Source of the DNA: a virus | Length of the DNA stretch: 64,000 nucleotides | Direction: 5' to 3' (one strand) | Virus record (IMG/VR): IMGVR_UViG_3300035181_001974 | Shown: in pieces, positions 10,762 through 35,038 of the stretch | How the letters are laid out: each line of letters begins with the position of its first letter | How positions within the stretch are numbered: position 1 is the first letter of the stretch | The notes under the pieces: model-generated | Seen by the model: the letters and a program-made list of their open reading frames with translations, nothing else | What the model was told of the DNA's origin: nothing | The model's database searches: none | Made by a program: the position numbers and the translations under genes

Positions 10762-11015
10762 GCTACACCTTCAGGCACAGTCACACGGCCTCGGGGAAGC
10801 AGCACGTCTTCCAAGGCCCAGGACTGAGTCAGCACGGTTCGAGCGTTCATCTGCAACAACACAACAACGAATGGGCTATCAAGTGCCTGAACGACGATAA
10901 GGATCGTCATGATCTTGCGGCGGACGTCATCTGTCACATGTTGGACCATGCTTACGAGGCCGGCCGTGAGGTGGCCCGGTTCGAGATTAGAGAGACATTG
11001 AGGATCATGAAATGA
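10758..11015 (+). CDS. hypothetical protein
   Basis: 85-aa ORF overlapping neighbours by 4 nt. Confidence 0.3.
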   Translation: MSYTFRHSHTASGKQHVFQGPGLSQHGSSVHLQQHNNEWAIKCLNDDKDRHDLAADVICHMLDHAYEAGREVARFEIRETLRIMK

Positions 11016-11803: not shown

Positions 11804-11815
11804 AGCAGAGGACAC

Positions 11816-12124
11816 ATGGATACCAAGACAGCACCCGTCACGGAAGAAGAAGTCAAGGAAATCGAAGAGAATGCTGAGCACCTCAAGAAGGTTCTCAAGA
11901 CGTTCGAGAACCAGCACGCCTACGCTGGCCCACGTCGAGCTCGATTGGAGGCGCTGATGAAGCGCAAGATCACTCGCAAGTGGAAGCCCGAGAAGACGGC
12001 GAAGATGGTCAGACGTTTGATCGCAGCTGGCCGCGATGATGAGCAGGCCGTGAACGCCATTGATCACATCAAGCACCGCCTGGAGCAGCTGGGGCGCAGT
12101 GATCGTGAAGCTGACTCGCGATGA
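11816..12124 (+). CDS. hypothetical protein
   Basis: 102-aa basic/acidic ORF. Confidence 0.35.
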   Translation: MDTKTAPVTEEEVKEIEENAEHLKKVLKTFENQHAYAGPRRARLEALMKRKITRKWKPEKTAKMVRRLIAAGRDDEQAVNAIDHIKHRLEQLGRSDREADSR

Positions 12125-12531
12125 GGTGGTCGAGGCCCACTGAGAGTGGGCCGCCAACCATCACAAGCTAGAGGTCACATGCGAAGTTGAGGTGACGGTG
12201 ATCATCAAGTCAAACCCCAACCAGGTGTACGAAGCTAAACAGATCACCGTCACCTTCCCGGAAGCCGCCGGTCAACCCTACGACCGCGAAGGCGATCAAT
12301 ATCGCTGATGCCAACGTGGATCCAATATCAACCAGGGACTTCCTCCTCGCCAAAAGAAGGATCTGCTCGAGCGACTGAAGCCATTGCGGGTCCTTGAGGC
12401 CGAACTGAAAAGGTCGACATGCTGCTCGATGCTCTCGATGGCAAAGACCAAAGTCGCTGGGGCTACGATAGAGGGTGATGCTACTCTCAATGCGACCTAT
12501 CATGGCGACGTCATCGTAGTAAGATCGGCCA

Positions 12532-19204: not shown

Positions 19205-20227
19205 ATGAAGACTGTCCTCGTCACGGGAGCCGCTGGTTTTCTGGGTTCGCACTTGATGCTACATCACTTGAGGGCGGGTGACAAGGTCCTCGGCCTCGAC
19301 AATTTCTGTTCGTCGAAGCCGGAGTCGATTCAGGTCGATGAGATCAAGAAGTTTCCGCTGGCGACGTTGATGTACTGCGATATCGCTGACGTCCATGGAG
19401 ACAGTCGCTTTAGTCGCGTGATTCACGATTACGACACCGGGTCGATGCACTCGGTACGCTTCGACATCATCTACAACTTCGCCTGCCCAGCATCGCCGCC
19501 CATCTACCAGCGCATGCCCGTGGAGACCATGATGACCTGTACGCTAGGCGTCCAGAACGTCCTGGAACTGGCGGCATCGCATGGATCGATCGTGGTCCAC
19601 GCTTCGACTTCTGAGGTCTATGGTGATCCCGAGAGTTCGCCGCAGGTCGAGTCATACCGAGGTCGCGTCAACTCCTACGGGCCCAGAGCCTGTTACGACG
19701 AGGGAAAACGTGCGGCAGAGGCCCTGTGCTATGACTACCTACATACCCACGGTGTCGACGCTCGCATGGTCCGGATCTTCAACACCTACGGTCCGCACAT
19801 GGACCCATACGATGGCCGGGTCGTCAGCAATTTCATCGTCCAGGCCTTGAAGGGCGAGAAGTTGACGATCTACGGTGACGGTCAACAGACACGTAGCTTT
19901 TGTTACGTGGACGACCTGATCAAAGGCATTGTGACCTTGGGCGATCTGGGCAACAACCCGCGGATGCCCATCAACCTCGGCAACCCGCACGAGTTCACGA
20001 TGAATCAGTTGGCGAAGGAGGTCATTCACCAAATCTACGGTGGGCGCGAGGCACCTCACCGCGATGTGGCCCGTTGGTTTGACTACAAACCGCTGCCTGT
20101 CGATGACCCGACGCAGCGTCGGCCCGACATCACCCAAGCCCAGAATCGTCTAGGGTGGGAGCCCAAGGTGCAGCTCGCAGAAGGCCTCAAACGTTCCATC
20201 GATTACTTCCGGAAGGTCATCGCCTAG
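19205..20227 (+). CDS. uxs: UDP-glucuronate decarboxylase (UDP-xylose synthase, UXS)
   Basis: Rossmann VLVTGAAGFLGSHL; UXS-diagnostic blocks ASTSEVYGDPE, GPRACYDEGKR, RIFNTYGP, DGRVVSNFIVQALKGEKLTIYGDGQQTRSFCYVDDL, INLGNPHEFT, RRPDITQAQNRLGWEP, YFRK. Confidence 0.85.
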   Translation: MKTVLVTGAAGFLGSHLMLHHLRAGDKVLGLDNFCSSKPESIQVDEIKKFPLATLMYCDIADVHGDSRFSRVIHDYDTGSMHSVRFDIIYNFACPASPPIYQRMPVETMMTCTLGVQNVLELAASHGSIVVHASTSEVYGDPESSPQVESYRGRVNSYGPRACYDEGKRAAEALCYDYLHTHGVDARMVRIFNTYGPHMDPYDGRVVSNFIVQALKGEKLTIYGDGQQTRSFCYVDDLIKGIVTLGDLGNNPRMPINLGNPHEFTMNQLAKEVIHQIYGGREAPHRDVARWFDYKPLPVDDPTQRRPDITQAQNRLGWEPKVQLAEGLKRSIDYFRKVIA

Positions 20228-20301
20228 ATGTAAAACTGATCGCTTCCGGTTTACCATGACGACATGGTTCTTGCAGACATTGCTGCCGAGGTTGCCGCTG
20301 G

Positions 20302-20622
20302 TTGCATCGTTGTTTCATAGCTCGTCACCCAGCTGAAGCCCACCTGGAACAAGCTGCCCAAGTGGCTCCGCGTGCTGATACCCATTGGTATGGCCACGTT
20401 GCCGCAGATCGCCGACATGGCCGGCTTGGTACACACCAGATTTTCGTTCACGATGAAAGCGTGTACTACGAAATTAAGGGAAGGTGGTCTGACAAGGCGT
20501 GCTATCAGCTTGCACTGATGCGAATCAAGTTTCCTGAAGTGACTATCGTGGTCATTGACGGTGTCCAGTACCGTCAATTGGGTCTACAGTACCGTGACAA
20601 GGTAAGGTGGGAAGGTAAATGA
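20302..20622 (+). CDS. small PD-(D/E)xK-like ORF upstream of dnaE (possible homing-endonuclease relic)
   Basis: IFVHDESVYYEIKGRWSDK...TIVVIDG resembles the nuclease cores of HEG at 22907 ([12 protein letters not shown]...VVVASG) and the relic at 29868 (VYVEVKGWWRDD). Confidence 0.35.
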   Translation: MHRCFIARHPAEAHLEQAAQVAPRADTHWYGHVAADRRHGRLGTHQIFVHDESVYYEIKGRWSDKACYQLALMRIKFPEVTIVVIDGVQYRQLGLQYRDKVRWEGK

Positions 20623-20676
20623 CGCAGCAAGGAAAGGAGGACGCCAAGGGAAGCTCGGTGCGAGTGCCCCGACGAT

Positions 20677-22362
20677 TTGTCGGTTTGCACAACCACACGG
20701 GCTTCTCGTAATGCGCCCTTCGATGGTTTGGGCTATCCCGATGAACACTTCAAGTGGTGCATGGAGAACGGGCTCGATGGCCATGCCATCACCGAGCACG
20801 GGAACATGAACTCCTATGCCCACGCTCAACTGTGGGTCGAGGAGTGGGCCAAGGCCAATAAGGGAAAGTCGTTCAAGTACATTCCCGGCGTCGAGGCGTA
20901 CTACCATCCCGACCTGGAGCAATGGAAGAAGGACGTCGAACTCGCAGAGCAGGCGAAGGGAGACAGGAGGGTTGCGGCCAAGCTTGCTAAGGAGCAGGAA
21001 AAGCTGCAGACCAAGATCATCGCCACCATCGATGAAAATGATGAGACTGAGGACATTGAGATGTCCAACGCCTTGACTGTCGAAAACGAGGAAGAGTCCA
21101 AATCGACCAAACACTTCAATCCCGTCAACCGACGGCATCACCTAGTCATTCTGCCCAAGAACCAGAAGGGCCTGTTGGCGATCTTCGCAGCATGTTCGAA
21201 GGGATTCTTGAAGGGCTTCTACAAGTTCCCGCGCATTGACCATGCTGTCCTCAAAGAGGCAGCCAAAGGCGGCGACATCATCGTCAGCAGCGCTTGTATC
21301 GGCGGCATGCCGGCGTACTCCATATTCCAGGAAATCCAACAGTACAAGTTTGACGAGCTCGACGCACGGTTGCTCAGTGACCCTGTGCTGCTCGAGAAAT
21401 GCGTTGTCGCGGTGGGCAATACCTACCAGCACATGGTCGATGCAGTCGGCGAAGGAAACTACTTCCTCGAGCTGCAGTTCAATCGCCTACCGGCGCAGAA
21501 CCTCGTCAACCGCGCGATCCTGGAGTTCGCTCGTCGCAATGGGCTCAACAAGCAGCTGATCGTCACCGGCGATGCTCACTACTATAATCCCGATCGTTGG
21601 AAGGACCGTGAGCTCTACAAGCGCCTGGGTTGGATGAACTACCAGGAGATCAATCCTGACGCGATTCCGAAGTCGAAGGATGAGCTGAAGTGTGAGCTCT
21701 ATCCGAAGAACGCCCAACAGATGTGGGATGAGTACCAGCGCTCCAAGGAAGGCACCGACTGGTATGACGATGAAGTCGTCTGTGACGCCATTGAGCGGAC
21801 TCACGATATCGCACACAGTGTCATCGGGGAGATTCCACCCGATCGTTCGCCCAAGTTTCCGACGAGGTTGTTGGTGCCCGAAGGCACGACCTCGTTCAAT
21901 CACCTCATCTCGCTTTGTAAGGTGGGCATGGTGAAGCGTGGTCTTCAAGACAAGCCAGAGTATATCGCGCGCCTCAAGGAGGAACTCGGCGTCATTAAGG
22001 TGATGAAAAACTCTGACTACTTCATTTCCTACCAGAAGATCATGGAGCTGGCACGCAATGTGTGCCTTACCGGCCCAGCCCGCGGTTGTTTCGTTCCTGA
22101 GACGCGGGTTCTAATGGCTGACGGCATGCATGCTCCCATTGGCACCATCAAGGTGGGCGACGTTATCAAGGATGCATATGGTGTTGATCAGATGGTGACT
22201 CAGATCTTCAGGTATCAGGTTGATGAGGAGCTGCTAGAACTCGAGTTTGATGACGGTAAGAAGATCAGGTGCACCAAGGAGCATAAGTTTCTGACGAAGA
22301 ATCGTGGGTGGATTGAAGCACAACACTTGACTGAAGATGATGACCTAATCGAGGTTGAATGA
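20677..22362 (+). CDS. dnaE: DnaE N-terminal extein (PHP + palm start) fused to N-intein 1; true start at 20618 in another frame (frameshift)
   Basis: frame A 20618..20710 encodes MTQQGKEDAKGSSVRVPRRFVGLHNHTGFS* (PHP motif), frame of ORF continues NAPFDGLGYPDEH...; N-intein 1 = 22087..22359 (CFVPETRVLMADG...LIEVE). Confidence 0.8.
   Translation: MSVCTTTRASRNAPFDGLGYPDEHFKWCMENGLDGHAITEHGNMNSYAHAQLWVEEWAKANKGKSFKYIPGVEAYYHPDLEQWKKDVELAEQAKGDRRVAAKLAKEQEKLQTKIIATIDENDETEDIEMSNALTVENEEESKSTKHFNPVNRRHHLVILPKNQKGLLAIFAACSKGFLKGFYKFPRIDHAVLKEAAKGGDIIVSSACIGGMPAYSIFQEIQQYKFDELDARLLSDPVLLEKCVVAVGNTYQHMVDAVGEGNYFLELQFNRLPAQNLVNRAILEFARRNGLNKQLIVTGDAHYYNPDRWKDRELYKRLGWMNYQEINPDAIPKSKDELKCELYPKNAQQMWDEYQRSKEGTDWYDDEVVCDAIERTHDIAHSVIGEIPPDRSPKFPTRLLVPEGTTSFNHLISLCKVGMVKRGLQDKPEYIARLKEELGVIKVMKNSDYFISYQKIMELARNVCLTGPARGCFVPETRVLMADGMHAPIGTIKVGDVIKDAYGVDQMVTQIFRYQVDEELLELEFDDGKKIRCTKEHKFLTKNRGWIEAQHLTEDDDLIEVE
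22087..22359 (+). other. N-intein 1 (91 aa), followed by stop
   Basis: C1 after GPARG; block A CFVPETRVLMADG..GTIKVGDVI; block B TKEHKFLT. Confidence 0.8.
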
Positions 22363-22446
22363 AACTCAACTAAGTTTACCTGATCCTCGTCAAATGTCTA
22401 TTAGACAGGGATCTCAAGGCTTACATGAAGAGAGCGAACGCATATC

Positions 22447-22944
22447 ATGAAGCTCAGAAGTAAGACTGTCGTACCGTATAAGGGTGAGGTCGTAGACCTG
22501 TGTGTGGAAAACAGCCACACTTACAACGTGGAAGGTATTGCAGTCCACAATTCGGGCGGTGGCTCTCTGGTCGCCTACGTCCTATACATCACCGACTTGG
22601 ACCCGTTGTTCTGGGACCTGCCTTTCGCGCGATTCCTTAGCGTTCACAGGTGTCTGTCGCCAGACACAAAGGTATTGATGTCAGATGGTTCGTCGTCCGC
22701 GCTTCGAGACGTGAAAGTCGGTGACAGCGTTGTCTCACAGGATGGCTCACACCGTAAAGTTACGTTCACCATGACCACAAAACATGAGAAGACGTACCGC
22801 GTGAAGGTGAATGGTACTACGTTCACGTGTTCTGAAAATCATGTGTGGTTGACAGTGGGTCCTGATGGACAACCTGTGAAGAAGTATACATCTGAGCTGT
22901 CGACGAGTGACGAGCTGTACACGTACCACTATGAGCATCATTGA
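22447..22944 (+). CDS. dnaE: C-intein 1 (22447..22551) + extein 2 (22552..22650) + N-intein 2 (22651..22941)
   Basis: [35 protein letters not shown]|[33 protein letters not shown]|[13 protein letters not shown]... Confidence 0.8.
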
Positions 22945-23872
22945 GAAACAGTGTAAACACTGTGGTATTATGTTTCAGTTCAACTATGAGCCCAACTGCA
23001 AGGGTTCTGGTAGTAGGCTCCATCGCCCGTACTGCACTGATGAGTGTGCCGTCGCTCACAGGAAGCTGATGTCACACGCTCCCATGCCCTCGAGGCTTGT
23101 GAAGACGTGCGTCGAGTACGGCGATGAGTTCTACGTTCCAAAGTGTCACAACAACAGAAAACTATGTTCGAATGCGTGCAGGCACAAGTACACTGCGAAA
23201 GCGCTGACAAAGAATGAGCTCCGTACACTGACATGTGTACAGTGTCTAGGCACTTTCTCAACGAAGAACGTCAATCGCAGGTTCTGTTCACCCAAATGTT
23301 TCGCTGCATCGAGGTTTGACCGCCACACGTTGGTATGCGAAGTTTGTAGCGAACCGATCGTCACCAAGAAGAGCTACGTGCCGCGGTTCTGTTCCAAACG
23401 GTGCACCCGCGAGGCACAGTCACGTGATATGGTTGCTTCACATGTGAACGGACGCTCGTGTTTTCGTTCCGACATCCTAAACAGCCCGTACTTCAAGAGC
23501 TCGTTCGAAGCCGACTACTACAGATATTGCTTGCACCTCGGTAAGATGCCATTCTATGAACATAGGTCTTTCCATGTTGTCATCGATGGCAAAGAGAAGT
23601 GTTACACTCCAGACTTTTGGTTCAGTGATGAGGACCGATACGTGGAGTTGAAAGGTGTGCGAGAAGGCAAATCGCGTTTCTCAAAGTTGCTTAACTCAAA
23701 CGCACGTTCACGGGAAGTCGTTGTGGCGTCTGGTCAGCGCATCGACGTCGTGTACATGAATGACTTCTATGGTGAACTTCGTCGACAAGGTTTGTACCAT
23801 ACGATTGCCAATCTAGAGCACAGGGACTATGCAGGAACCCAACATCTCATCAGCAAGCACGGCCAAAATTGA
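22907..23872 (+). CDS. free-standing homing endonuclease (multi CxxC zinc-ribbon + PD-(D/E)xK core) between halves of intein 2
   Basis: six or more CxxC pairs; C-terminal [17 protein letters not shown] = PD..(D/E)xK motif; nested between N- and C-intein 2. Confidence 0.65.
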
Positions 23873-24566
23873 AGCTATCGAGGTTGTCGATGAAAGTGTA
23901 GAACTCATCGACATCGAGGTCGAAGGCCAGCATACGTTTTGGGTGTCCAACAACGATAGCGATTGGGTGCTGACACATAACTCTGGTGCTCCTGATATCG
24001 ACTGCGTCCACGAGGACCATCTTGTCGTCATGACAGACGGCACTCATAAGCGAGCTGTTGACATCATTGTCGGCGACGTCGTCCTGGGAGGCGATGGAAT
24101 GCCACACGCAGTAACTGCGACCTATGCTAGAAATTTGCGGCCATTCGAGGACGCTGTCTGGGTCAGAGTTAGGGCCAATGATGGTACGTTGGGCCACATT
24201 TTGGTGGTGCCCGGTCACAAATTTGTCAGAGCTGACGGCGTCATCGTGTACTGCCGCGACCTTAAGGTCGGAGATGAATTGATGGCATCATGCGGCAGCG
24301 TTGAGGTCGTATCGATCGAGCACGGTGGTTGGGGCTCTTCCAACGCTAGATACGTCGACCTGACTGTTGAAGACGATCACAGATTCCACGTGGTACCGTT
24401 CAATACGTCCATTCTAAGTGGAGGTGATCCATCACATGACGTCGGTTATTGCATGGGCGTCATTCCTGGCACGTTCCTTGCGTGTGGCGAAGGAGACAAT
24501 TTTTGCAGCGATTGGTGCGCGTCTAAGAGAAGAACAGACCACAGCGAGCGCAACTATGAAATTTGA
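23829..24566 (+). CDS. dnaE: C-intein 2 (to 23981) + extein 3 SGAPDID (23982..24002) + N-part of intein 3 (24003..24563)
   Basis: ...VELIDIEVEGQHTFWVSNNDSDWVLTHN|SGAPDID|CVHEDHLVVMTDGTHKRAVDIIVGDVV...PGHKFV...RYVDLTVEDDHRFHVV then a non-extein-like tail. Confidence 0.7.
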   Translation: MQEPNISSASTAKIEAIEVVDESVELIDIEVEGQHTFWVSNNDSDWVLTHNSGAPDIDCVHEDHLVVMTDGTHKRAVDIIVGDVVLGGDGMPHAVTATYARNLRPFEDAVWVRVRANDGTLGHILVVPGHKFVRADGVIVYCRDLKVGDELMASCGSVEVVSIEHGGWGSSNARYVDLTVEDDHRFHVVPFNTSILSGGDPSHDVGYCMGVIPGTFLACGEGDNFCSDWCASKRRTDHSERNYEI

Positions 24567-24868
24567 GCTGGAGTTGGGACCGTGTCCGAGCAACGTTGAT
24601 GCGGTGCAGCTTACAGACAACGGCGATTCTGCCGAGCAGATGATGTGATAGTGTCTGGCCTGGAAAGAATAGCTCAGACGAGAGCTGCAGAAAATCCTGA
24701 ATTTCAAGATTGTCAGGTCAAACTGCGCGTTAAAGGGTTTGAGCACGATTTGGCCCCCATACTATGGGGCTACGTCGTGCGATGACGCCGACGCCGACGA
24801 GCGCACAATTGACGCCATCTTCTGGCTCAAAGAAAATGCGTCCTCAAAGTTTGACGATGACATTAGCG

Positions 24869-26602
24869 TCACGCTGTGACGTCTAAGACGTAGCGAGAGT
24901 TGCTACAGCCATAGATGCGATAAACGCCGGCAGCCTCCGCTACCTGTTTTTCTGTTAGACCTTGCTTCTTGTTGGCTCGGTACTTGAACCTGTCGTAACG
25001 ATGCATGAAGTCAGTCCACCAGAAGCGAGCGACTGTGGTACCGTTGAACTTCATGCCTGAGGTGGCATAACCGTTTCCTCCCAAGCGATTGTCTGAGTAA
25101 GACATCAACCTCGCTGCATTGTTTTCTCTTGCTATAGCTTTTGCCTTTGATAGCAATTTTGACACCCCGCCTCGTACATGTGTGCCAAGCTTGAAGCACA
25201 GGCGAGCGATCTCAATCGTCGTTCTGTCTGCCCCATTTCGTGCCCACCTAAGGCTGCAGGCGCCTACGATTTCGCCCGATGAGGTTACCAATCGCACGGC
25301 AAATTGGGCCCTCACGTGACCGTCGAGGTGGCACTGATTGATGAATTCTCGAACTTCTTCGGGCTCGCAGCGTTCTGCTTTCAACTTACGCGCATCGACT
25401 TTGGTAGAAAACCCAAGGCGATGGCGCAACATGCTTTCGATTATCGGTCGTTTGTCGCGCCACTCATCCTCAAATAACGTGAAAAGCGATACGCCGGCTT
25501 TGAGGGACAGCAATCTCTTCTTTTCCGCGTGATCGTGCTCAAATCTATTGGCGGCCTCGCTGTGCCAGTATAGGCCATTGCACTCGATGGCAAACATGCG
25601 CGATGGAATGAGTATGTCGAGCTCCATTCCGCCGAGCGTCTTACGATCGCTAAGGACTGCGTCAGGTGCCAGCGTCTGGATAAATGCGTAGACGTCCTGT
25701 TGCCACCTGCTCGTTTTGTCTGACCAAGGCGGAAAGCAGGTGGGACACTTGGCCTCGTTGTTGAACACTGCGCCAACGCAACGCTCAAATATTGTTGAAC
25801 ATATCGTGCATTCGATGCGCGCTTTGGTGACAGTATCGACATATTCGTCAATGAGTTTAAGCTGCTTTTCTTTGAGGCGTTTTTGTACCTCGTCGTGCGT
25901 CAGCAACTTTGCCTTGCGCATTTTTTCAAGCGTTACGTCGCTAAAGAATCGTCCTTTCAACGAAGCGCTGATCTTCTTACTGCGAGATTCAATGATGCTA
26001 GACGTATCCTTTGTCAGGCCAAGTGACCAGCCGCTGTGCGTTGCATAATACCTCCGCAGGCTGTCGCTGATTTTTGCCGCCTTTTGTTTAAGGCTTTCGT
26101 TGTTTTCCTTTGTCTTGTCGGAGTTGTGGTGACCGTGTTCCTTGTAGTGAGCTCGCATGTTTGCAGCACTGGCTGACATGCGTTCGTCATTGTCTTTCGT
26201 CAGGCCTTTGTTCCATGACGAGGTGCCCTTGGACGCGTATGCGTGTTTTCGGCTACAACGTGGACACCGTTCGGGGTATCCTTTTTCTTGATCGATGAAC
26301 CTGACCCAGTCGCAACAATCGATGCACGTCTTCCTGCACCCTGGGTACCTTGTTTCATACACAACGACGGGTGATTTTTGGTGCGTTTTTGTGCAGTGCA
26401 ATGTCAACTTACGCCCGCTGTCATATGACGCCTCACACCACGGACACGCGTAAGTTGACACCTGTTTGGGAGGCCTGGCGTCTTCTCGCCTGTGTCGTGC
26501 CTCGTGGATCTTCAATGCTCGTAGCGTTTCGTGGTTTCGACCACAACGAGCGCATGTAAATTCAACTGTAGTTGAGTTAGGATTCATGTGATGGTCGTTC
26601 AT
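24869..26602 (-). CDS. homing endonuclease: C2H2 zinc fingers + NUMOD3 + Vsr-like (DUF559/EDxHD-type) nuclease + C-terminal GNAT-like domain; inserted antisense inside intein 3
   Basis: FTCARCGRNHETLRALKIHEARH and YACPWCEASY..HCTKTH fingers; NUMOD3-like GHHNSDKTKENNESLKQKAAKIS; nuclease core ELDILIPSRMFAIECNGLYWHSE...D; C-terminal RGGVSKLL...RFWWTD shared with 27288..29087. Confidence 0.7.
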   Translation of the reverse strand: MNDHHMNPNSTTVEFTCARCGRNHETLRALKIHEARHRREDARPPKQVSTYACPWCEASYDSGRKLTLHCTKTHQKSPVVVYETRYPGCRKTCIDCCDWVRFIDQEKGYPERCPRCSRKHAYASKGTSSWNKGLTKDNDERMSASAANMRAHYKEHGHHNSDKTKENNESLKQKAAKISDSLRRYYATHSGWSLGLTKDTSSIIESRSKKISASLKGRFFSDVTLEKMRKAKLLTHDEVQKRLKEKQLKLIDEYVDTVTKARIECTICSTIFERCVGAVFNNEAKCPTCFPPWSDKTSRWQQDVYAFIQTLAPDAVLSDRKTLGGMELDILIPSRMFAIECNGLYWHSEAANRFEHDHAEKKRLLSLKAGVSLFTLFEDEWRDKRPIIESMLRHRLGFSTKVDARKLKAERCEPEEVREFINQCHLDGHVRAQFAVRLVTSSGEIVGACSLRWARNGADRTTIEIARLCFKLGTHVRGGVSKLLSKAKAIARENNAARLMSYSDNRLGGNGYATSGMKFNGTTVARFWWTDFMHRYDRFKYRANKKQGLTEKQVAEAAGVYRIYGCSNSRYVLDVTA

Positions 26603-27445
26603 TCATTTTTGGCGTCCAACAAGAGCGTCGTTGTTCACAACACCGATCTTGCCAGGCGAGATGAGGTTCTTGATGAACTTCGAAACTTTTTTGGGTGGGA
26701 AAACGTCGTTCCCATCAGCAATTATAACTGTTTCAAACTAAAAACGCTTGTAAAGGATATCGGCAAGTTCTACGGCATCCCATTCGAGGAGACCAACGCT
26801 GCCACGCGGACCGTCGAGGACGAGGTCCGTAAGGCGACGATGAAGGAAGGCGACGACAAGAATCTGTTCGTCTTGACCTACGATGAGGCCATGGCCTTCC
26901 ACTGCAGGGCTCCTAAGGGCCCGGAGTCGAAGTCCATCTGCCAGGGCTGTAGCCCAGAGTGTAAGCAGCCGGTCAGCCCGTCGTTTCGCGGCTTCATTGA
27001 GAAGTACCCGGTCGTCGCCGAGTCGATCAAGATCCTCTTCAAGCAGAATCGTAGTCTCGGTCGTCACGCGGGTGGTGTGCTGATTGCAGACGATTTGCCC
27101 AACAAGATGCCTTTGGTGACGTCCAAAGGCAAGGCCGGCGTCCGCGAGCCACAGTCACCTTGGGTCGAGGGCGTAAATTATAAACACCTTGAGAAGATCG
27201 GAGAGTTCATCAAGTACGACCTCCTAGGTCTAGAAACGATGCGGCTCATCGAGCGCGCCATCGAGCTCATCATCAAAAAGGAACGACATGAAAGAGGGTG
27301 GTTTGAGATCCAACTCGACGATGGAACGACACGAGGCGTCTACGGCGACCAACGAATCGTCACCAGCAACAGGGGCACCATCCTTGCGAGGGAGCTCGGG
27401 CCCGGCGATGACATCGTGTCCTTCGAGGTGCCCACAGTGCAATGA
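26588..27445 (+). CDS. dnaE: very short C-part of intein 3 (at most 22 codons, ..HSFLASNKSVVVHN) + extein 4 (DnaE palm/fingers segment)
   Basis: VVVHN|TDLARRDEVLDELRNFFGWENVVPISNY..KTLVKDIGKFYGIPFEE aligns to E. coli [48 protein letters not shown]; later RHAGGVLIA, KYDLLGLETMRLIERAIELI; in-frame stop 3 codons upstream of the first listed start. Confidence 0.75.
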   Translation: MMVVHSFLASNKSVVVHNTDLARRDEVLDELRNFFGWENVVPISNYNCFKLKTLVKDIGKFYGIPFEETNAATRTVEDEVRKATMKEGDDKNLFVLTYDEAMAFHCRAPKGPESKSICQGCSPECKQPVSPSFRGFIEKYPVVAESIKILFKQNRSLGRHAGGVLIADDLPNKMPLVTSKGKAGVREPQSPWVEGVNYKHLEKIGEFIKYDLLGLETMRLIERAIELIIKKERHERGWFEIQLDDGTTRGVYGDQRIVTSNRGTILARELGPGDDIVSFEVPTVQ

Positions 27446-29087
27446 TCCATTGCGAAAAGCTAGCCTAAATTCGCTCCGCGCACATCTCCTTAAAAAGCAC
27501 GGGCTCAATGCGGAGGCTGCGTACCTTCTTTTTCGAGAGCACCCTGGACCGTGCGTTCAGTGTTCAGGGCCGGTCAAGTTCATGACCTTTCAAACGGGAT
27601 ATGAACGTCTCTGTGGAGTTTGTAGCAAGAAGAACTCTCAAGTAAGAGGTGCGCTTAGCCGGAAATCAAAATCATTGCCTGCATGGAACAAGGGGCTGTC
27701 AGAAACAACGTCTGAATCGGTTCGAAGGGCCGCACAAGGTTGTCGTGATTTCATCAAAAAACACGGGCACTGGAGAACAGGACAAACTAAAGAAAATAAT
27801 GAATCTATCACAAGAGCTGCGCATAACATCTCTCGAGCATTGACTGAAAAATGGCAAGTAGAAAAACACTGGACGCAGCACGGTCAGACGTCAGAAACTG
27901 ACGATAGGATCAAACGGCGATCAGAACGGATCGGCGAAGGCGTTCGCTTGAATCATTGGTCTCGGAACGCTAATTCTGAAGATATCAAACGTTCGATCAT
28001 CGAGACTAGAAAACGCCTTATCGAGAACGGCACTAACTCTCCTTTTCGGTTGTCTCTCGAAGAGGTCGAACGGCGAGTTGATGCACTGCGGTCGAGGTGG
28101 AACATCGAAAAATTTGAGTTTGCTGGATACTCAACACCGGTGCATGTGACATGCGTCAGTTGTAACGTACCTGATATTGTTCCCTTTAACGTCCTTTACA
28201 AGGGAAAGGTGTGTTCAACGTGCTACCCGGCTAATTTCTCTCGCTGGCATCGTGAGGTGTTCGATTTCTTCGTCAAGCTCGATTCGAACGCCATCGCCAA
28301 CGACAGACAGTCAATCGCGCCTTATGAGCTGGACATCGTGTCAGGTAACGGAAGGATTGCCATCGAGTGCAACGGTGTCTATTGGCACAGTGAGGCGACC
28401 GGTACTCCACCATCGTATCACCAAGACAAGTCGACTCGCGCTCTTGAGCGTGGTGTGTCGTTGCTACATATCTTCGACGATGAATGGCACCATGATGTAA
28501 AGAAAAACATCATCAAAAGCATGATCAGGGTAAAGCTTGGTCTTGCTACTCGCGTGATGGCACGAAAGCTACATCTTCGCAGCGGTCGTCCAGCCATCAC
28601 CGCTCAGTTCATGGCGAACAATCACCTCGATGGAAACACTCCTTCGTCGCATTCGTTCTGGCTAGAGGACATTGCTGGAAACATTATTTGTGCATTGACA
28701 TTGCGAAAACCGCACCAGCAGACTAAGTGGGGATCTAAGACAATTGAATTGGCGCGGGTTTCAACGGCCCGCGATACCATCGTCGTTGGAGGCATGTCGC
28801 GGTTGATCAACGCTGCCAGGGATTGGTCACGTGAGCATGGTTACCAAAAAATGATCACATACCGTGACATGAGGTTGGGTGGCACTGGCCGGGCGTATGA
28901 ACTATCTGGTTTTAGATTTGATCACATGACGCAGCCTAGGTTTTGGTGGACGGACGGACAAAATCGTATCGATAGATTTGCTGTCAGGGCGATTCCGGGG
29001 ATCGCATCACAAGAAGAGATGGCGATGGAACACAGGCTTTTTAAGATCTTTGGTTGCTCCAACGCGGTGTACGTTATGGACCTGTGA
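27411..29087 (+). CDS. homing endonuclease (paralog of 24869..26602) inserted directly in the dnaE extein; ORF track start 27288 is probably an overlap artefact
   Basis: Zn-finger/NUMOD3-like N-terminus, Vsr-like core ELDIVSGNGRIAIECNGVYWHSE, C-terminal GGMSRLI...RFWWTD...FGCSNAVYVMDL domain. Confidence 0.65.
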   Translation, partial: TSCPSRCPQCNDPLRKASLNSLRAHLLKKHGLNAEAAYLLFREHPGPCVQCSGPVKFMTFQTGYERLCGVCSKKNSQVRGALSRKSKSLPAWNKGLSETTSESVRRAAQGCRDFIKKHGHWRTGQTKENNESITRAAHNISRALTEKWQVEKHWTQHGQTSETDDRIKRRSERIGEGVRLNHWSRNANSEDIKRSIIETRKRLIENGTNSPFRLSLEEVERRVDALRSRWNIEKFEFAGYSTPVHVTCVSCNVPDIVPFNVLYKGKVCSTCYPANFSRWHREVFDFFVKLDSNAIANDRQSIAPYELDIVSGNGRIAIECNGVYWHSEATGTPPSYHQDKSTRALERGVSLLHIFDDEWHHDVKKNIIKSMIRVKLGLATRVMARKLHLRSGRPAITAQFMANNHLDGNTPSSHSFWLEDIAGNIICALTLRKPHQQTKWGSKTIELARVSTARDTIVVGGMSRLINAARDWSREHGYQKMITYRDMRLGGTGRAYELSGFRFDHMTQPRFWWTDGQNRIDRFAVRAIPGIASQEEMAMEHRLFKIFGCSNAVYVMDL

Positions 29088-29105
29088 AAGTACCTTTACA
29101 AAGAC

Positions 29106-29582
29106 ATGGCAAAAGTCGTTGCTAACGTTGACGCACATACAAATGCGGTATCATTCAATGACATCAAGACCTGGTTCGAGCAGCACATGCACCCGGCCGT
29201 CATTGATTTCACCGATCCCAAACCTTACGAGGTCTACGAGAAAGGCAAGTGGGCAGGCATCTTCCAGTGCGTCGACCAGGACACGGCAGTGCTGATGGGC
29301 GATGACTCGTACAAGTTGATCAAGGACGTCCATGTCGGTGACGAGGTGACGGTCTTCGATGAAGTCAAGCAGCAGTTCACCACATCAGTCGTCGACGTCG
29401 TTTACGACCAAGGACCCAAGGAGTGCATCGAGCTCGTGTTCGACGACGGCAAGAAGCTTGTCTGCACCGCTGATCATCCCATCTTGACGAAGAATCGCGG
29501 GTGGGTTGAGGCACAGCACCTAACCGAAGACGACGAGTTGATTGGGTCTAGCAGTGGTTACGAAGCTCGTGGATTGACGTGA
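29106..29582 (+). CDS. dnaE: extein 5 (29106..29267) + N-intein 4 (29268..29579)
   Basis: AVIDFTDPKPYEVYEKGKWAGIFQ|CVDQDTAVLMGDDSYKLIKDVHVGDEV...; N-intein 4 tail (LVFDDGKKLVCTADHPILTKNRGWVEAQHLTEDDELI) is paralogous to the N-intein 1 tail. Confidence 0.75.
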   Translation: MAKVVANVDAHTNAVSFNDIKTWFEQHMHPAVIDFTDPKPYEVYEKGKWAGIFQCVDQDTAVLMGDDSYKLIKDVHVGDEVTVFDEVKQQFTTSVVDVVYDQGPKECIELVFDDGKKLVCTADHPILTKNRGWVEAQHLTEDDELIGSSSGYEARGLT

Positions 29583-29666
29583 GGCGGGCGTTTTGGTCGC
29601 AGGTTTCGCCGCGACCGTGGCCATGTCGCCTTACAGAGACGCAACAGGCCCACGACTCCGCAACAT

Positions 29667-30056
29667 GTGATTGTACGGACGCGCTCCGCTCATCGTAGCG
29701 CCCCTTTGTACTTTCTGCACTCAGCGGGCAACGGGAACGGAAAGAATGGCGTCGTCGACCTGTATGACAACTGGCGTCATTGCATGGACGAGGGCTTCAG
29801 CGAGGAGGAGATCAGGATCCAGCTCACAAGAGAGGCGTACATGATCTTCCATCGTCAATGACCGACGTTGGAGCTCTTTAAGCGGGTGTACGTGGAAGTC
29901 AAGGGCTGGTGGCGTGATGATGCTAGGGAGAAGTTTGACGCATTCGTAACGTTGCATCCGACGCTCAAGTGTGCACTTGTCAGTGGATATGACCTACAGT
30001 TGCTAGAAAAGAAGGAGACGACGCTTGAAGCTTGTGTCATCACGCAGCGTGGGTAA
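29667..30056 (+). pseudogene. decayed homing-endonuclease relic (PD-(D/E)xK core) between halves of intein 4, with in-frame TGA at 29859..29861
   Basis: ...MIFHRQ*PTLELFKRVYVEVKGWWRDDAREKFDAF resembles [15 protein letters not shown] of HEG 22907; far too short for a functional HE. Confidence 0.5.
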
Positions 30057-30624
30057 GCGCCACGTCTACGACATCGAGGTGCGAAATCATCATAATTTCG
30101 TCGCTAACGACGTCGTTGTTCACAATTGCACGGGCCAGGGCGCTCAGCGACTCTTTGTCAAAGGCAAGCCCAAGAGCATCATCGACATCGCGACGCTGAC
30201 CAGCATCTATCGCCCGGGTCCCTTGGCCGCCAAAGTCGATCGACTGTACTTGGAGGCGAAGAATGACGGCAAGGAGTTGGAGTGGGGCGATCACCGCGTC
30301 AACGACATCCTGAAGAAGACATACTCGTGTTTGACGGGTGACACACATATCCTTACTGAGCAAGGTGAGGTTCCCATTAGACAAATCGTTGAACAAGGAA
30401 TGGTGGGAACTAAGCTTCCGTCATACAATGAAATGACGAAGACCGTCGAGATGGACGAAGTTGTCGCTGTCGCCTCAAACGGCGTACGTGACATCATCGA
30501 GGTTGAGCTGGAGGGTGGAGAAACTTTGTCTTTGACTGAAGATCACCTTGTCATGACGCCTCGTGGTTGGGTGCAAGCAGGTGAACTGACGTCTGAAGAC
30601 GAGATTTTGGGAATGAAGTACTGA
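30025..30624 (+). CDS. dnaE: C-intein 4 (30025..30126) + extein 6 (30127..30327) + N-intein 5 (30328..30621)
   Basis: MKLVSSRSVGKRHVYDIEVRNHHNFVANDVVVHN|CTGQG..IATLTSIYRPGPLAAKVDRLY...KKTYS|CLTGDTHILTEQGEVP...; IYRPGPL matches DnaE ALFRPGPL. Confidence 0.8.
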   Translation: MKLVSSRSVGKRHVYDIEVRNHHNFVANDVVVHNCTGQGAQRLFVKGKPKSIIDIATLTSIYRPGPLAAKVDRLYLEAKNDGKELEWGDHRVNDILKKTYSCLTGDTHILTEQGEVPIRQIVEQGMVGTKLPSYNEMTKTVEMDEVVAVASNGVRDIIEVELEGGETLSLTEDHLVMTPRGWVQAGELTSEDEILGMKY

Positions 30625-30630
30625 AACCAG

Positions 30631-30830
30631 GCTACTTCGTCGTGCCATCACTCAACCTCATCATCGAGTACGACGGCGACTATTGGCACAGTAACCCAGC
30701 GAAGCATGAACTAACACCTGCGATGAAGAAGCAATTTAGGCTTGATCAATTATGGACGCTTGCCACAAGAACTTGAGGCTTCACGGTGTACCGCGTCTGG
30801 GAGTCTGATGCCTTGAACTATCACCTCAAA
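30631..30830 (+). pseudogene. Vsr-like (DUF559/EDxHD-type) nuclease-core relic with in-frame stop, between halves of intein 5
   Basis: YFVVPSLNLIIEYDGDYWHSNPAKHE...RLDQLWTLATRT*GFTVYRVWESD matches only the catalytic core of HEGs 24869/27411/31990; no DNA-binding region. Confidence 0.5.
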
Positions 30831-30847
30831 TTGAGGACAATTTAGAC

Positions 30848-31093
30848 ATGAAGATTGATGATTTTGAAGAGGAGTTGCTTACGTCGTTCAAGAACTTTAT
30901 CAACACGATGAAGTCACATACGGCATTTGGAAAGCGTGATGATCTCACGTATGCCGACTGGTTCGACACATTTCGAGCTTATGAAGAGGTCGGAAATGAT
31001 ATGGAGCTCGAATACCATGGTCAACGTGTTTTGAGTGTTGATGGACCAGTGTGCCAACTCTGCGCATCATCATTGAACATGAAAGAAAAATGA
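30848..31093 (+). CDS. hypothetical small protein inside intein 5 gap
   Basis: 81-aa ORF. Confidence 0.35.
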   Translation: MKIDDFEEELLTSFKNFINTMKSHTAFGKRDDLTYADWFDTFRAYEEVGNDMELEYHGQRVLSVDGPVCQLCASSLNMKEK

Positions 31094-31094
31094 T

Positions 31095-31412
31095 ATGAGC
31101 GCAGATCTTTACACTAGCGAGATCGATGACGATGTTTATGGATCTCTAACGCTAGAGATGAACGTTCATGGGAATTTGCGAATCATTGCATATGATCCTG
31201 GGACTAGAGATTTGGTAGGTTGCTGTCAGTTTCCACCCTCGCATGAGGGTTTCAACGAAGCCCAACGATTGATCAACGCTTTGCAAGAATGGATGCGTCA
31301 TGTGGGGGAAAATCTCAACCCTTGCCGAGTCGTTCTAGGCAGTGATGCTTTGTCGCGCTCAATGTCATTACACATTGTTTGTCAGACTCATCGTGAAACG
31401 GAGCGTAAGTGA
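31095..31412 (+). CDS. hypothetical small protein inside intein 5 gap
   Basis: 105-aa ORF, start 1 nt after previous stop. Confidence 0.35.
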   Translation: MSADLYTSEIDDDVYGSLTLEMNVHGNLRIIAYDPGTRDLVGCCQFPPSHEGFNEAQRLINALQEWMRHVGENLNPCRVVLGSDALSRSMSLHIVCQTHRETERK

Positions 31413-32110
31413 TGCCTGACGTAGTTCCCGTCAAGATCCGTGCGATCAAGCGTGTTCCTGCACAGCCTGTGTACGACATCCAGGTCAAGAAGAACAACAA
31501 CTTCTTCGCAAATGGCCTTCTCGTGCATAACTGCATAATTTTTCAGGAACAGGTGATGGAACTCGCCGAGAAGGCTGCCGGCTTCCCGAAGGACAAGTGT
31601 GACGAGGTCCGTCGCGCAATCATGAAGCGCAGCATCTCGGGCGGTGAGGCGGCAAAGAAGGCAGCCCAAGAGACCCGTGACGGGTTCGTCAAGGGTTGCA
31701 TCGCCAACGGTTATACCGAGAAGGTGGCCAACAACCTCTACGACAAGATTCTGTACTTCGCGGGCTACGGCTTCAATAAAAGTTTGTACTTTTCGGAACC
31801 AGTAAATACCTTTTTTTCAGACGGCACGTTCAAAGAGACAAAGCAGCTTCAACACATCGAACCCGGCGACCTGGTCATGTCTCGTGATGAGAATTCAGGT
31901 AAAAACATCCTCGTCCCTGTTGTTGCAAAACACGACCACGGTGAGCTAGACTTGGTAGAAGTGGAGTTGGTGACCGGAGAGAAGGTAAAGTGCACGTGGG
32001 ATCACAAGTTCAGGACGAAGGAGACAAACGAGATGTTGCCCCTGTGGATGATTGCCGAACGGGGCCTCAGCATCGTTGTGACCGATGTAGCAGGCTCTTC
32101 GTCTACCTGA
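31409..32110 (+). CDS. dnaE: C-intein 5 (31409..31531) + extein 7 (31532..31780) + N-intein 6 (31781..32107, Ser1)
   Basis: ...PVYDIQVKKNNNFFANGLLVHN|CIIFQEQVMELAEK...KILYFAGYGFNK|SLYFSEPVNTFFSDGTFKE...TWDHKF; extein matches E. coli GIILYQEQVMQIAQ...VEKFAGYGFNKS. Confidence 0.8.
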   Translation: MMPDVVPVKIRAIKRVPAQPVYDIQVKKNNNFFANGLLVHNCIIFQEQVMELAEKAAGFPKDKCDEVRRAIMKRSISGGEAAKKAAQETRDGFVKGCIANGYTEKVANNLYDKILYFAGYGFNKSLYFSEPVNTFFSDGTFKETKQLQHIEPGDLVMSRDENSGKNILVPVVAKHDHGELDLVEVELVTGEKVKCTWDHKFRTKETNEMLPLWMIAERGLSIVVTDVAGSSST

Positions 32111-33039
32111 AGGCCTACGAAAAACACCAAGCTAGGTGCCAAGGATTCATACTCGGTGACAGTGAGAGTGTCACATGCCAAGTCTGTGGCTTCACGGGTA
32201 AGGCACTGGCAAAGCACTTGTCGGGGACGCATGGTATGAGCAAAGAAGAATACCTGAAAGCGTACCCGACTGCCGCAATCACATCGAAAGTCTCGACAGC
32301 GCGTTTCAAGCATCGTGGGCAGAATTTCGCCTGGCTCAAACGAGCGAAGGCACGCGGTGATGATTTGACTGCCTACAAGGAAAAGATGGGCCGTGCGGTC
32401 AGTGAGGCCATCACGAGCAATCCGGGCGAGAGGAAACGTCGCTCTGAACTAATGGGAGAACTTAATCGACGACCTGAAGCCCGTAAACGTTCATCAGACG
32501 TTGCAAGACTAACGTCAACCCGGCCTGAGATACTCAAGGCACGTGCTGAGCGCCTGGCCCGTTGGCGTGAGTTGAACCCCGATGAGTTCTACGAAAAGTG
32601 CACAAAAGCTGCACATGCTATTTGGCATAGCATTCCGGAATTAGCGTTGTTTGATTTGTTGAAAAACGTTGAAGGTTATGATTTTGTTCATAATCAGGTC
32701 GTCAAGTCAGTTGCTTTTCCAAACAAATCTAAAAGAAAGCAAGTTGACATTGCCGATCGATCAAGACACATTTATGTTGAATTTGATGGAATCATCCATT
32801 TTAATGCACGTATTAAAGGCGAGGATAATTTTGAACGAGTGAAGTGCATGGATGCAATGCTTGATGATTACATCACTAAACATGATTGGACACTCATTCG
32901 AATTTCTTACGATCAGTTCTCATACAAGGATGGCGGTCGCTTCGAACCTGATTGCTTGAAAAAGCTTTTTGAGATCCTGAAAGATCCTCGACCTGGCGTT
33001 CATCGGATAGGAAAAGCGTATGAAAAGACCGCCGTTTGA
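31990..33039 (+). CDS. free-standing homing endonuclease (Zn finger + basic NUMOD-like linker + Vsr-like core) between halves of intein 6
   Basis: CDRCSRL..HQARCQ and CQVCGF..H finger; core HIYVEFDGIIHFNARIKGEDN...LIRISYDQF (DUF559/Vsr pattern). Confidence 0.65.
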   Translation: MHVGSQVQDEGDKRDVAPVDDCRTGPQHRCDRCSRLFVYLKAYEKHQARCQGFILGDSESVTCQVCGFTGKALAKHLSGTHGMSKEEYLKAYPTAAITSKVSTARFKHRGQNFAWLKRAKARGDDLTAYKEKMGRAVSEAITSNPGERKRRSELMGELNRRPEARKRSSDVARLTSTRPEILKARAERLARWRELNPDEFYEKCTKAAHAIWHSIPELALFDLLKNVEGYDFVHNQVVKSVAFPNKSKRKQVDIADRSRHIYVEFDGIIHFNARIKGEDNFERVKCMDAMLDDYITKHDWTLIRISYDQFSYKDGGRFEPDCLKKLFEILKDPRPGVHRIGKAYEKTAV

Positions 33040-33244
33040 AATCGCACTGAATGACATTGCCCAACGCATGGGTCTGAGTCCGATCGAACTGTTACGGGCC
33101 GCGGCACGTTACCGACGCAAAAGCGAAACGAAGGTTGAACTCCAGCCGACTGACGAGTACATTGAAGAAGAGTATGCTAAAGCAATGCTTGATGAACCGA
33201 ACGCAGGAGCGATCGAAGACCTGTTGAAGGACCTGCTCACATGA
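33020..33244 (+). CDS. hypothetical small protein
   Basis: 74-aa ORF between HEG6 and C-intein 6. Confidence 0.3.
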   Translation: MKRPPFEIALNDIAQRMGLSPIELLRAAARYRRKSETKVELQPTDEYIEEEYAKAMLDEPNAGAIEDLLKDLLT

Positions 33245-34371
33245 GTAACATCAAGTCTATCACACCCGTGGGTCGACACCAGACCTATGACCTCGAAGTC
33301 GATCACCCGGATCACCAGTTCTATCTCGCTAACGGGATACTGACGTCTAACAGCCATGCAGTGGCATACGCCATTGACAGCTTCTGGTGCGCCTGGCTGA
33401 TGACATATCACGAGGAGGAATGGCTGTGTGCCTATCTCGAAAGCATGTCGCACACTCCTGCTCAACGTGCTAAGGCGTTCAGCGAGGTAAAGGCCTTGGG
33501 CTATCAGATCGTCCCGATCGACATCAACCTGGCGGGGCTCGGGTGGACCGCGCTGCCCGGCAAGAAGTTGATGCCGTCGATGACGTCCTGCAAGGGTGTC
33601 GGCGACTCGGCGGTCGAAGAGATCATGGCCAACCGTCCCTACAACACTATCGAGGAGTTGCTGTGGGATGACAACTTCGAGTGGAAACACAGCAAGTTCA
33701 ACAAGAAGGCGATGGAGGCCCTGGTCAAGATCGGTGCCTTCGGCAGTATGGACATCGTGGGCGAAGGCAAGGTCTTCAACAACTATCATCACATGCACGA
33801 GGTCCTCTTCGGTTCTCACGTGGAGACCGTGACCAAGAAGCGCAAGGGCGTCGAGGTCACCGAAGAGGTCGACATCGATCACGGGGCGTTGATCAAGCGA
33901 CACCCGAAGTCTGACCCGCACGAGGGCCTTAAGAACTTCTACCAGTTGGTCAGGGACTACGCTGACATCGAGGACTGGTCGTCTTCTGAACGTGCTCAAA
34001 ATATGGTCGACGTCTTCGGTGCTTTGGACGTCACCGCCATGATTGACATCGAAATCTTGGCTGCCTTGGAGAAGAAGGGCGTCAATAGCATTGACGACCT
34101 GGAGCACGGTGACACGGCGGTCGTCTGGTTTGTCACGGCCCCTGTTGCTGCAAAGAAGGGTGGCAAGCCGGTGACGGGCATCAAGAAGAAGACCCGCAAT
34201 GGCAAGGAATATGTGCAAATCTTTGCGGTTGGACCCACTGGCAAGGCCACGAAGATTTCTGTCTGGGGCGGCAAGGAGCTTCCTGACCCCTTCATCCTGT
34301 GTTGTGCCGAGGTCAAGAGGGACGACTTTGGCGCGTCGACGACGGTCTGGAAGTTGAGGGAAATCACGTAA
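33241..34371 (+). CDS. dnaE: C-intein 6 (33241..33351, ends TSN) + extein 8 = DnaE C-terminal region (fingers end, OB domain)
   Basis: MSNIKSITPVGRHQTYDLEVDHPDHQFYLANGILTSN|SHAVAYAIDSFWCAWLMTYH..; LGYQIVPIDINLAG matches E. coli GLKILPPDINSG; KGVGDSAVEEIMANR matches KGVGEGPIEAIIEAR. Confidence 0.8.
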   Translation: MSNIKSITPVGRHQTYDLEVDHPDHQFYLANGILTSNSHAVAYAIDSFWCAWLMTYHEEEWLCAYLESMSHTPAQRAKAFSEVKALGYQIVPIDINLAGLGWTALPGKKLMPSMTSCKGVGDSAVEEIMANRPYNTIEELLWDDNFEWKHSKFNKKAMEALVKIGAFGSMDIVGEGKVFNNYHHMHEVLFGSHVETVTKKRKGVEVTEEVDIDHGALIKRHPKSDPHEGLKNFYQLVRDYADIEDWSSSERAQNMVDVFGALDVTAMIDIEILAALEKKGVNSIDDLEHGDTAVVWFVTAPVAAKKGGKPVTGIKKKTRNGKEYVQIFAVGPTGKATKISVWGGKELPDPFILCCAEVKRDDFGASTTVWKLREIT

Positions 34372-34564
34372 ACATAAAACCCATGTACACCTACGAACAG
34401 TTGATCGAGAAGATAGTCCGTGCCAAGGTCTCGCTGGCAACCACCGCGGGCACTCGGACTCGTGCCCAGCTGAATGCGATCACGAGGGCTACGCTCCGTG
34501 CAACTGTGGGGCCACGGCACACAACAGTCATATCTCTGCGTCTTTGGAGGACCTGAAGCTATGA

Positions 34565-35038
34565 ATGACGAGGGCGTGCCCAACGCGGACGCACTCCGAC
34601 AGTGGGCCGAGGCTTGGGAAGCCGCTGAACAACAGTGGGAAGAGACGATGGAGAGGACGGAGCGCGACAACAGGTGCCTCGAGGAAGAAAGGATCGCAGA
34701 TGAGTCGACGCGGCATCGTGATAACGCTACAGGTCTCTCTCCCAACTTGGGATAAAGAAAAGAACCAGTGGATGTTGCCTCCTCCCAGCGTTAAGCTGGC
34801 GCGGAAGCTACGCATGGCCCTCAGCAATGACATGACAGAAGCCTCGGAGGAAGAGATCGAGGCGTATGCCGTCCAGCTAGCTGAGGACTTCAAGAAAGAA
34901 GTCACGCTTGATGAGTGGAGTGGATTTTTCCGCGGGATCATCGAGCGAGTTCGTGACTATGATCGCGAGGGTCACGAGCGACGTGCTAGATTTAGCAACA
35001 TCTCCCCGGGCATCGGCAACCGCAAGGACGACGTTTAG
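34565..35038 (+). CDS. hypothetical protein
   Basis: 157-aa ORF; overlapping alternative frames make the start uncertain. Confidence 0.3.
   Translation: MTRACPTRTHSDSGPRLGKPLNNSGKRRWRGRSATTGASRKKGSQMSRRGIVITLQVSLPTWDKEKNQWMLPPPSVKLARKLRMALSNDMTEASEEEIEAYAVQLAEDFKKEVTLDEWSGFFRGIIERVRDYDREGHERRARFSNISPGIGNRKDDV

Follow-up and report, generated by a model that had tools for sequence, protein, structure and literature searches.

The locus described here raises the question of whether an intein broken in nature so near its C-terminus that about 17 residues are left for the second fragment can still restore a DNA polymerase. It lies in a stretch of viral DNA of 64,000 nucleotides (IMG/VR virus record IMGVR_UViG_3300035181_001974; hereafter, the window), which encodes on its plus strand, at 20677-34371, a phage-type DnaE (the alpha subunit of DNA polymerase III, Pol III) in eight open reading frame (ORF) pieces cut by split inteins. 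Six of the junctions look catalytically plausible as split inteins, and a further one is a dead remnant. This paper is concerned with the third intein (intein 3), whose halves are separated by a homing-endonuclease gene on the opposite strand. A preliminary description, made from the letters of the DNA alone, had proposed that intein 3 is either atypically split or dead. The first part of this proposal is supported, as the C-fragment is kept wherever both halves are readable and is under purifying selection, while the second is not supported, the catalytic residues being invariant in the close family. In our judgement, intein 3 is quite probably a functional, naturally split class-1 intein (Cys1, Thr+1), broken between motifs C2 and C1 and located right after the second catalytic Asp of the phage DnaE.

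Insertion site and exteins

As a ruler for the junctions we used an uninterrupted DnaE orthologue of 1263 residues, encoded at 8459-12250 of a 127-kb IMG/VR contig (L001). At the insertion point of intein 3 this orthologue is unbroken and reads ...GAPDID/TDLADRDKVL (a slash marks the junction), which confirms the position; the same empty site is present in fourteen IMG/VR relatives. Likewise, TDLARR.., which had been taken for the true DnaE C-extein in the preliminary description, is identified as such both by L001 and by the Pfam family DNA_pol3_alpha.

On the other side of the intein, the ORF of piece 3 reads ...WVLTHN/SGAPDID/CVHEDH..., where WVLTHN is the end of the C-part of intein 2 and SGAPDID is an extein of seven residues. 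The PDIDTD of L001 aligns to PDFDVD of E. coli Pol III alpha (2HNH), and in this alignment SGAPDID carries the equivalents of D401 and D403 of E. coli DnaE, which we take to be its catalytic aspartates. As the insertion site comes after the D403 equivalent, failure to splice would strand the catalytic dyad on a chain of 245 residues that consists almost wholly of intein parts. The dyad is delivered on such a chain also in P0006, P0008, P0011, P0014 and P0017.

The two fragments of intein 3

The N-terminal nucleophile, Cys1 (24003), directly follows GAPDID and is invariant in all relatives. From there, as described earlier and confirmed on reading the sequence again, the N-part holds block A, VVPGHKF as block B and YVDLTVEDDHRF as block F, and then continues into non-extein sequence up to the stop codon at 24564-24566. 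The core ends at Tyr149, after the strand HRFHVVPF and a family-specific hairpin (NTSIL..SHDVGY), and its invariant residues are C1, H72 (the His of block B), D119 and H126 (block F, invariant in the close family), F128, P132, F133 and Y149. The N-part is matched by the Pfam family PT-HINT (1.2e-8). The Cys-rich tail that follows the core is kept in P0002-P0004 and L028 and absent from P0005-P0014; it may be a zinc knuckle.

In the frame of the C-part, a TGA (26573-75) is followed by a GTG (26588), an ATG (26591), the terminal His-Asn (26636-41) and Thr+1 (26642). The in-frame TGA limits the C-part to at most 22 codons, as had been stated before, and to 17 from the ATG. Judged from this reading frame, the C-part most likely has the 17 codons that begin at the ATG. 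It encodes a short leader (HSFL..) and, as block G or motif C1, the last strand, which carries the terminal His-Asn. The C-parts of the other five DnaE split inteins of the window are of ordinary length (34-51 aa).

Position of the break

In a profile search of the PDB, the N-part stretch DDHRFHivPFNV aligned to DDFHTYHVGDNEV in block F of 2LWY, a bacterial intein-like (BIL) domain. In a profile-profile comparison, residues 1-129 of the N-part aligned to columns 1-128 of the 136 columns of a canonical intein template, through block F, with a probability of 97.3% and an E value of 1.7e-11; the template was composed of four inteins of the window, Npu DnaE and gp41-1. As block F aligns within the N-part, motif C2 belongs to the N-fragment, which is short of the last strand only. 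The break thus follows C2 and does not coincide with the canonical N4/C2 site, where endonuclease domains are inserted.

The fold of the N-fragment agrees with this placement. An AlphaFold model calculated from a 14-row N-part alignment had a predicted local distance difference test (pLDDT) score of 70-95 over the N-part and an extra predicted hairpin (FNTSI and PSH), while the single-sequence model scored 36. The top Foldseek matches were all inteins or BIL domains, with a template-modelling (TM) score of 0.79 at 2.2 Å for gp41-1, of 0.76 for 2LWY and of 0.74-0.79 for Msm DnaB and gp41-1; the E value for the Msm DnaB intein was 1.7e-7.

An exhaustive profile search of 1.84 billion representatives gave 721 matches. 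If the close family from the previous searches is counted in, 50 distinct DnaE pieces show PD[IV]DC, an N-part of 141-202 aa and an end of the form F-x-[VI]-[VI]-P-F plus a tail. Only two relatives, P0089 and P0112, were contiguous at the same DnaE site. P0089 reads ...SFNIAPFDVAENITSPHHYMVCGLNSCLQNNLTIVSHN/SDCADRE and P0112 ...TFQVLPFNINSKNLLNKDPIRVVSHN/SDVSDRE, and both carry F-x-V-x-P-F and x-[CL]-L-x..-VVSHN serially in one chain. The sequences of both are collinear with the N-core plus the C-part of the split members, and in the alignment of P0089 with the fused parts the break falls at ..GY/MV... By this collinearity, the native chain of the family runs from F-x-V-x-P-F as a strand through a loop or hairpin and a brief x-[CFL]-L segment to the last strand, and it is in the loop that the split occurred.

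Conservation of the split and selection

Homologue searches provided 14 close-family N-part proteins, and for most of them the genomic context was read. Relatives occur on viral contigs of up to 369 kb, and a contig of 309 kb encodes a protein identical to that of the piece-3 ORF. A megablast search of 20600-30000 against GenBank phages gave no match, no relative was found in 185,579 cellular genomes, and viral contigs scanned with a single N-part protein yielded nothing; alignment-based scans of viral contigs added L028 and L029-L031 only.

Both halves are present at nine close-family loci (the window, L021, L022, L023/24, L025, L026, L027, L028 and L030/31), and the same break is found at all nine and at one distant locus, L032. 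In the close family, the N-part ORF extends over 148-189 aa from Cys1 and shows ...DDHRFHxVPF, 13-16 residues, GY and, optionally, the Cys-rich tail. At a distance of 1.6-5.6 kb downstream, the next DnaE piece begins M-x(1-3)-HSFLxxxxSVVVHN/TD. The C-part is 16-18 aa long at the nine close loci (at most 22-23 where bounded by a stop), and thus outside the canonical range of about 30-54; an in-frame stop occurs a few codons upstream of its start at six of them. At L032, the only locus of the distant tier that was readable, the C-part (...SSFMKEDRWIGTHN/C) is at most 29 aa, with 21 from a GTG or 11 from an ATG.

Cys1, H72, D119, H126, the terminal His-Asn and Thr+1 are all invariant in the close family, at an overall identity of 47-71%. 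If the cis relatives are added, C1, H72, D119 and the His-Asn are still invariant, and H126 and the +1 residue (Ser there) vary. Block G reads VVVHN/T at every one of the nine close loci, THN/C in L032 and SHN/S in the cis relatives.

Selection was estimated as the pooled Nei-Gojobori ratio of nonsynonymous to synonymous differences per site (pN/pS), the synonymous sites being near saturation (pS 0.72-0.89). The ratio was 0.27 for 14 codons of the C-part, 0.20 for the flanking extein, 0.44 for residues 1-117 of the N-part and 0.70 for the hairpin (134-149). Purifying selection on the C-part is about as strong as on the polymerase itself.

In the distant-tier N-parts (P0021-P0065) the conserved tails are longer and contain a Y-x-[IV]-D-x-D motif, many ending in R-x-I-x-[LI]; such tails could stand in for the last strand from within the N-part.

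Proposed splicing of intein 3 and alternative explanations

In the mechanism that we propose, the N-fragment (149-aa core and 38-aa Cys-rich tail) folds as a near-complete HINT domain minus its last strand. The C-fragment of about 17 aa, translated at the head of the next polymerase piece, would supply the leader and the last strand with its His-Asn, insert as a strand into the pre-formed N-fragment and thereby complete the active site; standard trans-splicing would then join ...GAPDID to TDLARR.... Such a mechanism is feasible, because engineered C-fragments of 15-16 aa and of 6 aa do trans-splice.

A number of observations speak against functional splicing. In the AlphaFold chimera, the C-part had a pLDDT of 36-57 and was not placed with confidence; the low values are due to the lack of alignment rows for the C-part, and a homologue search aimed at C-part-bearing proteins returned nothing. 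The Thr position of the T-x-x-H of block B is occupied by Val (V-P-x-H) throughout the close family, even though its His is invariant. The start of the C-fragment is deduced, and no ribosome-binding motif is kept in the relatives. The C-piece sits downstream of a 1.7-kb antisense gene with no promoter signal to account for its expression, and a promoter and terminator scan of 24300-27000 found nothing above background. Finally, the distant tier is often devoid of the block-F His (e.g. SSSFRVLPF), and for this reason some of the wider family may operate in another way or be inactive.

In an alternative reading, intein 3 would no longer splice, its halves would act as non-covalent association domains only, and the polymerase would remain in separate chains. 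Site 4 of the same gene is such a non-splicing case, so that the phage may tolerate a multi-chain polymerase. Nevertheless, we regard this as unlikely. Cys1, the block-B His, the block-F Asp and His, the His-Asn and Thr+1, all invariant in the close family, have drifted at site 4; the C-part is as constrained as the extein; and without splicing both catalytic Asp residues would sit on a seven-residue extein between two intein parts.

The preliminary description had also claimed that the block F/G region is present twice. On this basis, a contiguous mini-intein would have had its F/G duplicated when the antisense endonuclease gene inserted into it: HRFHVVPFN/T in the N-part would be redundant or dead, and the copy in the C-part stub alive. 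Both stretches do contain H-x-F followed by hydrophobic residues, and FN/T superficially resembles HN/T. When the two copies were aligned, however, they proved no more alike than shuffled sequences: the local alignment score was 13 for DNA (24360-24450 of the N-part vs 26576-26660 of the C-part region; shuffle mean 13.3) and 18 for protein (shuffles 17.4). The Asn of PFN/T is not conserved, its position being occupied by N, T, S or D among relatives, and it is separated from HRF by 6 residues vs 10-11 in canonical inteins. HRFHxVPF is not a relic, because it is the most constrained segment of the intein (pN/pS 0.11), and the cis relatives have both elements in tandem order in one chain. The same break also exists without this endonuclease, and we consider a duplication very improbable.

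Least credible of all is a joining of the halves before or during translation, by a group I or group II intron with its endonuclease or by translational bypass, which would make the short C-part an artefact of ORF reading: ...DDHRF joined to LASNKSVVVHN would look like a canonical mini-intein, and group I introns often carry endonuclease genes, but no Rfam family matched 20000-35000 even at E<=1, the stretches HVVPF...GY and M..HS that flank such a junction are kept at the amino-acid level with synonymous change, and the intervening DNA spans 1.6 to 5.6 kb and includes unrelated genes on either strand.

Comparison with known split inteins

In its setting, intein 3 is close to the fractured genes described by Dassa et al. 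(2009; PMC2677866), which include gp41-1, NrdJ-1, IMPDH-1 and three DnaE loci. As in those cases, the split intein interrupts an essential replication enzyme of a phage at a conserved position of its active site, and the halves are separated by a free-standing, perhaps Vsr/EDxHD-like endonuclease gene. The fractured genes, however, lie on one strand and are broken between N4 and C2, with C-parts of 33-54 aa and a single atypical case that is short on the N side (PMC2677866). At intein 3 the endonuclease gene is antisense, the split is placed between C2 and C1, and 16-18 aa make up the C-part.

C-fragments as short as this have been engineered. Engineered IntC15 and IntC16 splits, among them Npu DnaE IntN123/IntC15 (IntN and IntC being the N- and C-terminal intein fragments), are functional (Aranko et al., 2009; PMC2664965), and an IntC of 6 aa suffices for trans-splicing in the S11 splits made from Ssp GyrB, Ssp DnaX and Ter DnaE3 (PMC3620165, PMC11766414). 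Intein 3 shares with them a near-complete N-fragment and a C-fragment that gives only the last strand or strands. Those splits are laboratory constructs derived from contiguous or canonically split inteins, whereas intein 3 is natural, is kept in many lineages of phages, and has its break flanked by a hairpin and a leader that are specific to the family.

Natural atypical splits are known from GOS-TerL, AceL-TerL, VidaL and PolB16 OarG, in which the N-fragment is short (15-37 aa) (PMC10189870, PMC11766414). They resemble intein 3 in being non-canonical and in pairing one very short fragment with one near-complete HINT fragment, but the polarity is reversed, the short piece of intein 3 being the C-fragment. 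The cyanobacterial split DnaE intein (Ssp and Npu DnaE) has in common with intein 3 the Pol III alpha host, Cys1 and class-1 chemistry; it differs in its insertion site, its canonical break (IntN 102-123 aa, IntC 36 aa), the location of its halves at distant loci and its Cys+1.

The IntC of natural split inteins is about 35-40 aa and the atypical ones are short in IntN (Pasch et al., 2023; PMC10189870), in agreement with the earlier remark that a C-fragment of some 17-22 aa is unusual, and a 2025 review gives short-C splits of the S11 type as synthetic only (PMC11766414). Natural split inteins described in the literature searched have either a C-fragment of about 30-54 residues or an atypical N side. 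No natural short-C split intein was found in full-text literature, of which coverage was partial, so that an earlier description is possible, and one of the three DnaE loci of Dassa et al. might belong to this family. The intein 3 family may be the first natural family of split inteins broken between C2 and C1, with a C-fragment of 16-18 residues shaped by evolution, in which the conserved extra hairpin of the N-fragment (in some lineages with the Cys4 tail) would clamp the incoming last strand or hold its place for a time; to this combined proposal we give equal weight for and against.

Among the tools for ligating and labelling proteins, split inteins hold a key place, and short fragments are valued because they can be made as synthetic peptides, and natural splits usually outperform engineered ones (PMC10189870, PMC2664965). 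If the proposal is true, a conserved natural family whose 17-residue C-fragment is within reach of chemical synthesis would be a ready candidate for C-terminal semisynthesis. It would also mean that nature can break the HINT fold at a second position, and that insertion of a mobile gene can open it there. The loci form a clean evolutionary series for the study of gene fracture, from the empty site through cis inteins to splits whose endonuclease is intact, splits in which it is decaying and splits that hold foreign cargo.

The DNA between the halves

The features of the locus are collected in Table 1.

Table 1. Features of the intein 3 locus and of the neighbouring junction (positions in the window).
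Feature	Position	Strand	Remarks
DnaE ORF pieces	20677-22362, 22447-22944, 23829-24566, 26588-27445, 29106-29582, 30025-30624, 31409-32110, 33241-34371	+	
Extein SGAPDID (7 residues)	23982..24002	+	between intein 2 (HN at 23976-23981) and intein 3; from sequence reading
Intein 3 N-fragment core, Cys1 to Tyr149	24003..24449	+	blocks A, B and F, strand, hairpin
Block F (motif C2) and next strand, YVDLTVEDDHRFHVVPF	24351..24401	+	most constrained intein stretch; pooled pN/pS 0.11, pS 0.89
Cys-rich tail, C-x10-C-x6-C-x3-C (GYCMGVIPGTFLACGEGDNFCSDWC), and stop	24450..24566	+	tail 24450-24563, 38 aa; pN/pS 0.49; low-confidence in model
Decayed small cargo gene	24557..24855	+	tblastn vs 103-aa ORF of L023 (6681-6992): 36% identity over 99 aa, E 2e-17; three in-frame stops
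Free-standing homing-endonuclease gene, 577 aa	24869..26602	-	PHROG 3339 'homing endonuclease', E 3.5e-59
AGGA, possible ribosome-binding site	26579..26582	+	8 nt 5' of the C-fragment ATG; weak evidence
Intein 3 C-fragment, MVVHSFLASNKSVVVHN	26591..26641	+	17 aa from ATG; 18 from GTG 26588; at most 22
C-extein, DnaE piece 4, TDLARRDEVL.. with Thr+1	26642..27283	+	Pfam DNA_pol3_alpha positions 110-260; 86% identity to L001
Site 4, degenerate intein remnant	27284-27442 and 29106-29150		
Second endonuclease gene, 599 aa	27288-29087	+	32%-identical paralogue of the 577-aa endonuclease

Endonuclease genes lie between the halves at several of the DnaE split inteins of the window. The antisense gene of intein 3 was found as first described, in extent as well as in the overlap of its start with the C-part: its ATG (26602-26600) is the reverse complement of a His codon of the C-part (26600-02). 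The overlap is not conserved, as L021 has a spacer of 19 nt at this point. Orthologues of the 577-aa protein, with 47-59% identity, are encoded in L021, L022, L023 and L026, some of them truncated or broken. The protein matched the Pfam family MTES_1575 weakly (17.8 bits vs a cut-off of 38.2); a search of the PDB gave insignificant matches only, with an E value of 0.8 for 3R3P, used as a test for the Vsr-like (EDxHD) I-Bth0305I family.

What lies in the gap varies from locus to locus. The antisense endonuclease is intact in the window and in L021, N-terminally truncated in L022 and L026, and in two ORF fragments in L023; the gene is on the minus strand at all five of these loci and on the sense strand only at the distant locus L032 (same PHROG). 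No endonuclease is present in L025, where about 17 small plus-strand ORFs occupy 5.6 kb (6625-12240), nor in L027 (6669-8412), which has a gene for a DnaJ-family chaperone and one other gene. In L023, the N-part is directly followed by the 103-aa ORF of which the decayed cargo gene of the window is a same-frame homologue. The gap between the halves of intein 3 is a general insertion or cargo slot. That the antisense endonuclease copy, which had been said to split the intein, defines the split is not supported, because the same break occurs with a truncated or broken endonuclease, with a sense one (L032) or with none (L025, L027). An ancestral endonuclease insertion may or may not have been the origin of the break.

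The 577-aa endonuclease is unusual in its C-terminal part. Its last 170 or so residues, in the C-terminal third (24869-25400), match the 'Mom-like DNA modification protein' family phrog_1384 (E 1e-10) and, weakly, the GNAT acetyltransferase fold, an unusual accessory domain for a homing endonuclease. With the 599-aa paralogue on the plus strand, the same endonuclease family is present twice in adjacent breaks of the DnaE gene, in opposite orientations.

The fourth junction

Site 4 lacks Cys1 and block A, and the T..H motif is replaced by Y..Q. On the N side, the tail is similar only to the latter half of an N-intein (31% identity over 42 aa to the N-part of intein 5, E 1e-6), and on the C side, at 29106, the sequence MAKVVANVDAHTN/A puts an Ala at +1. 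At this site the polymerase is probably left as two chains. The relative L021 is unbroken there.

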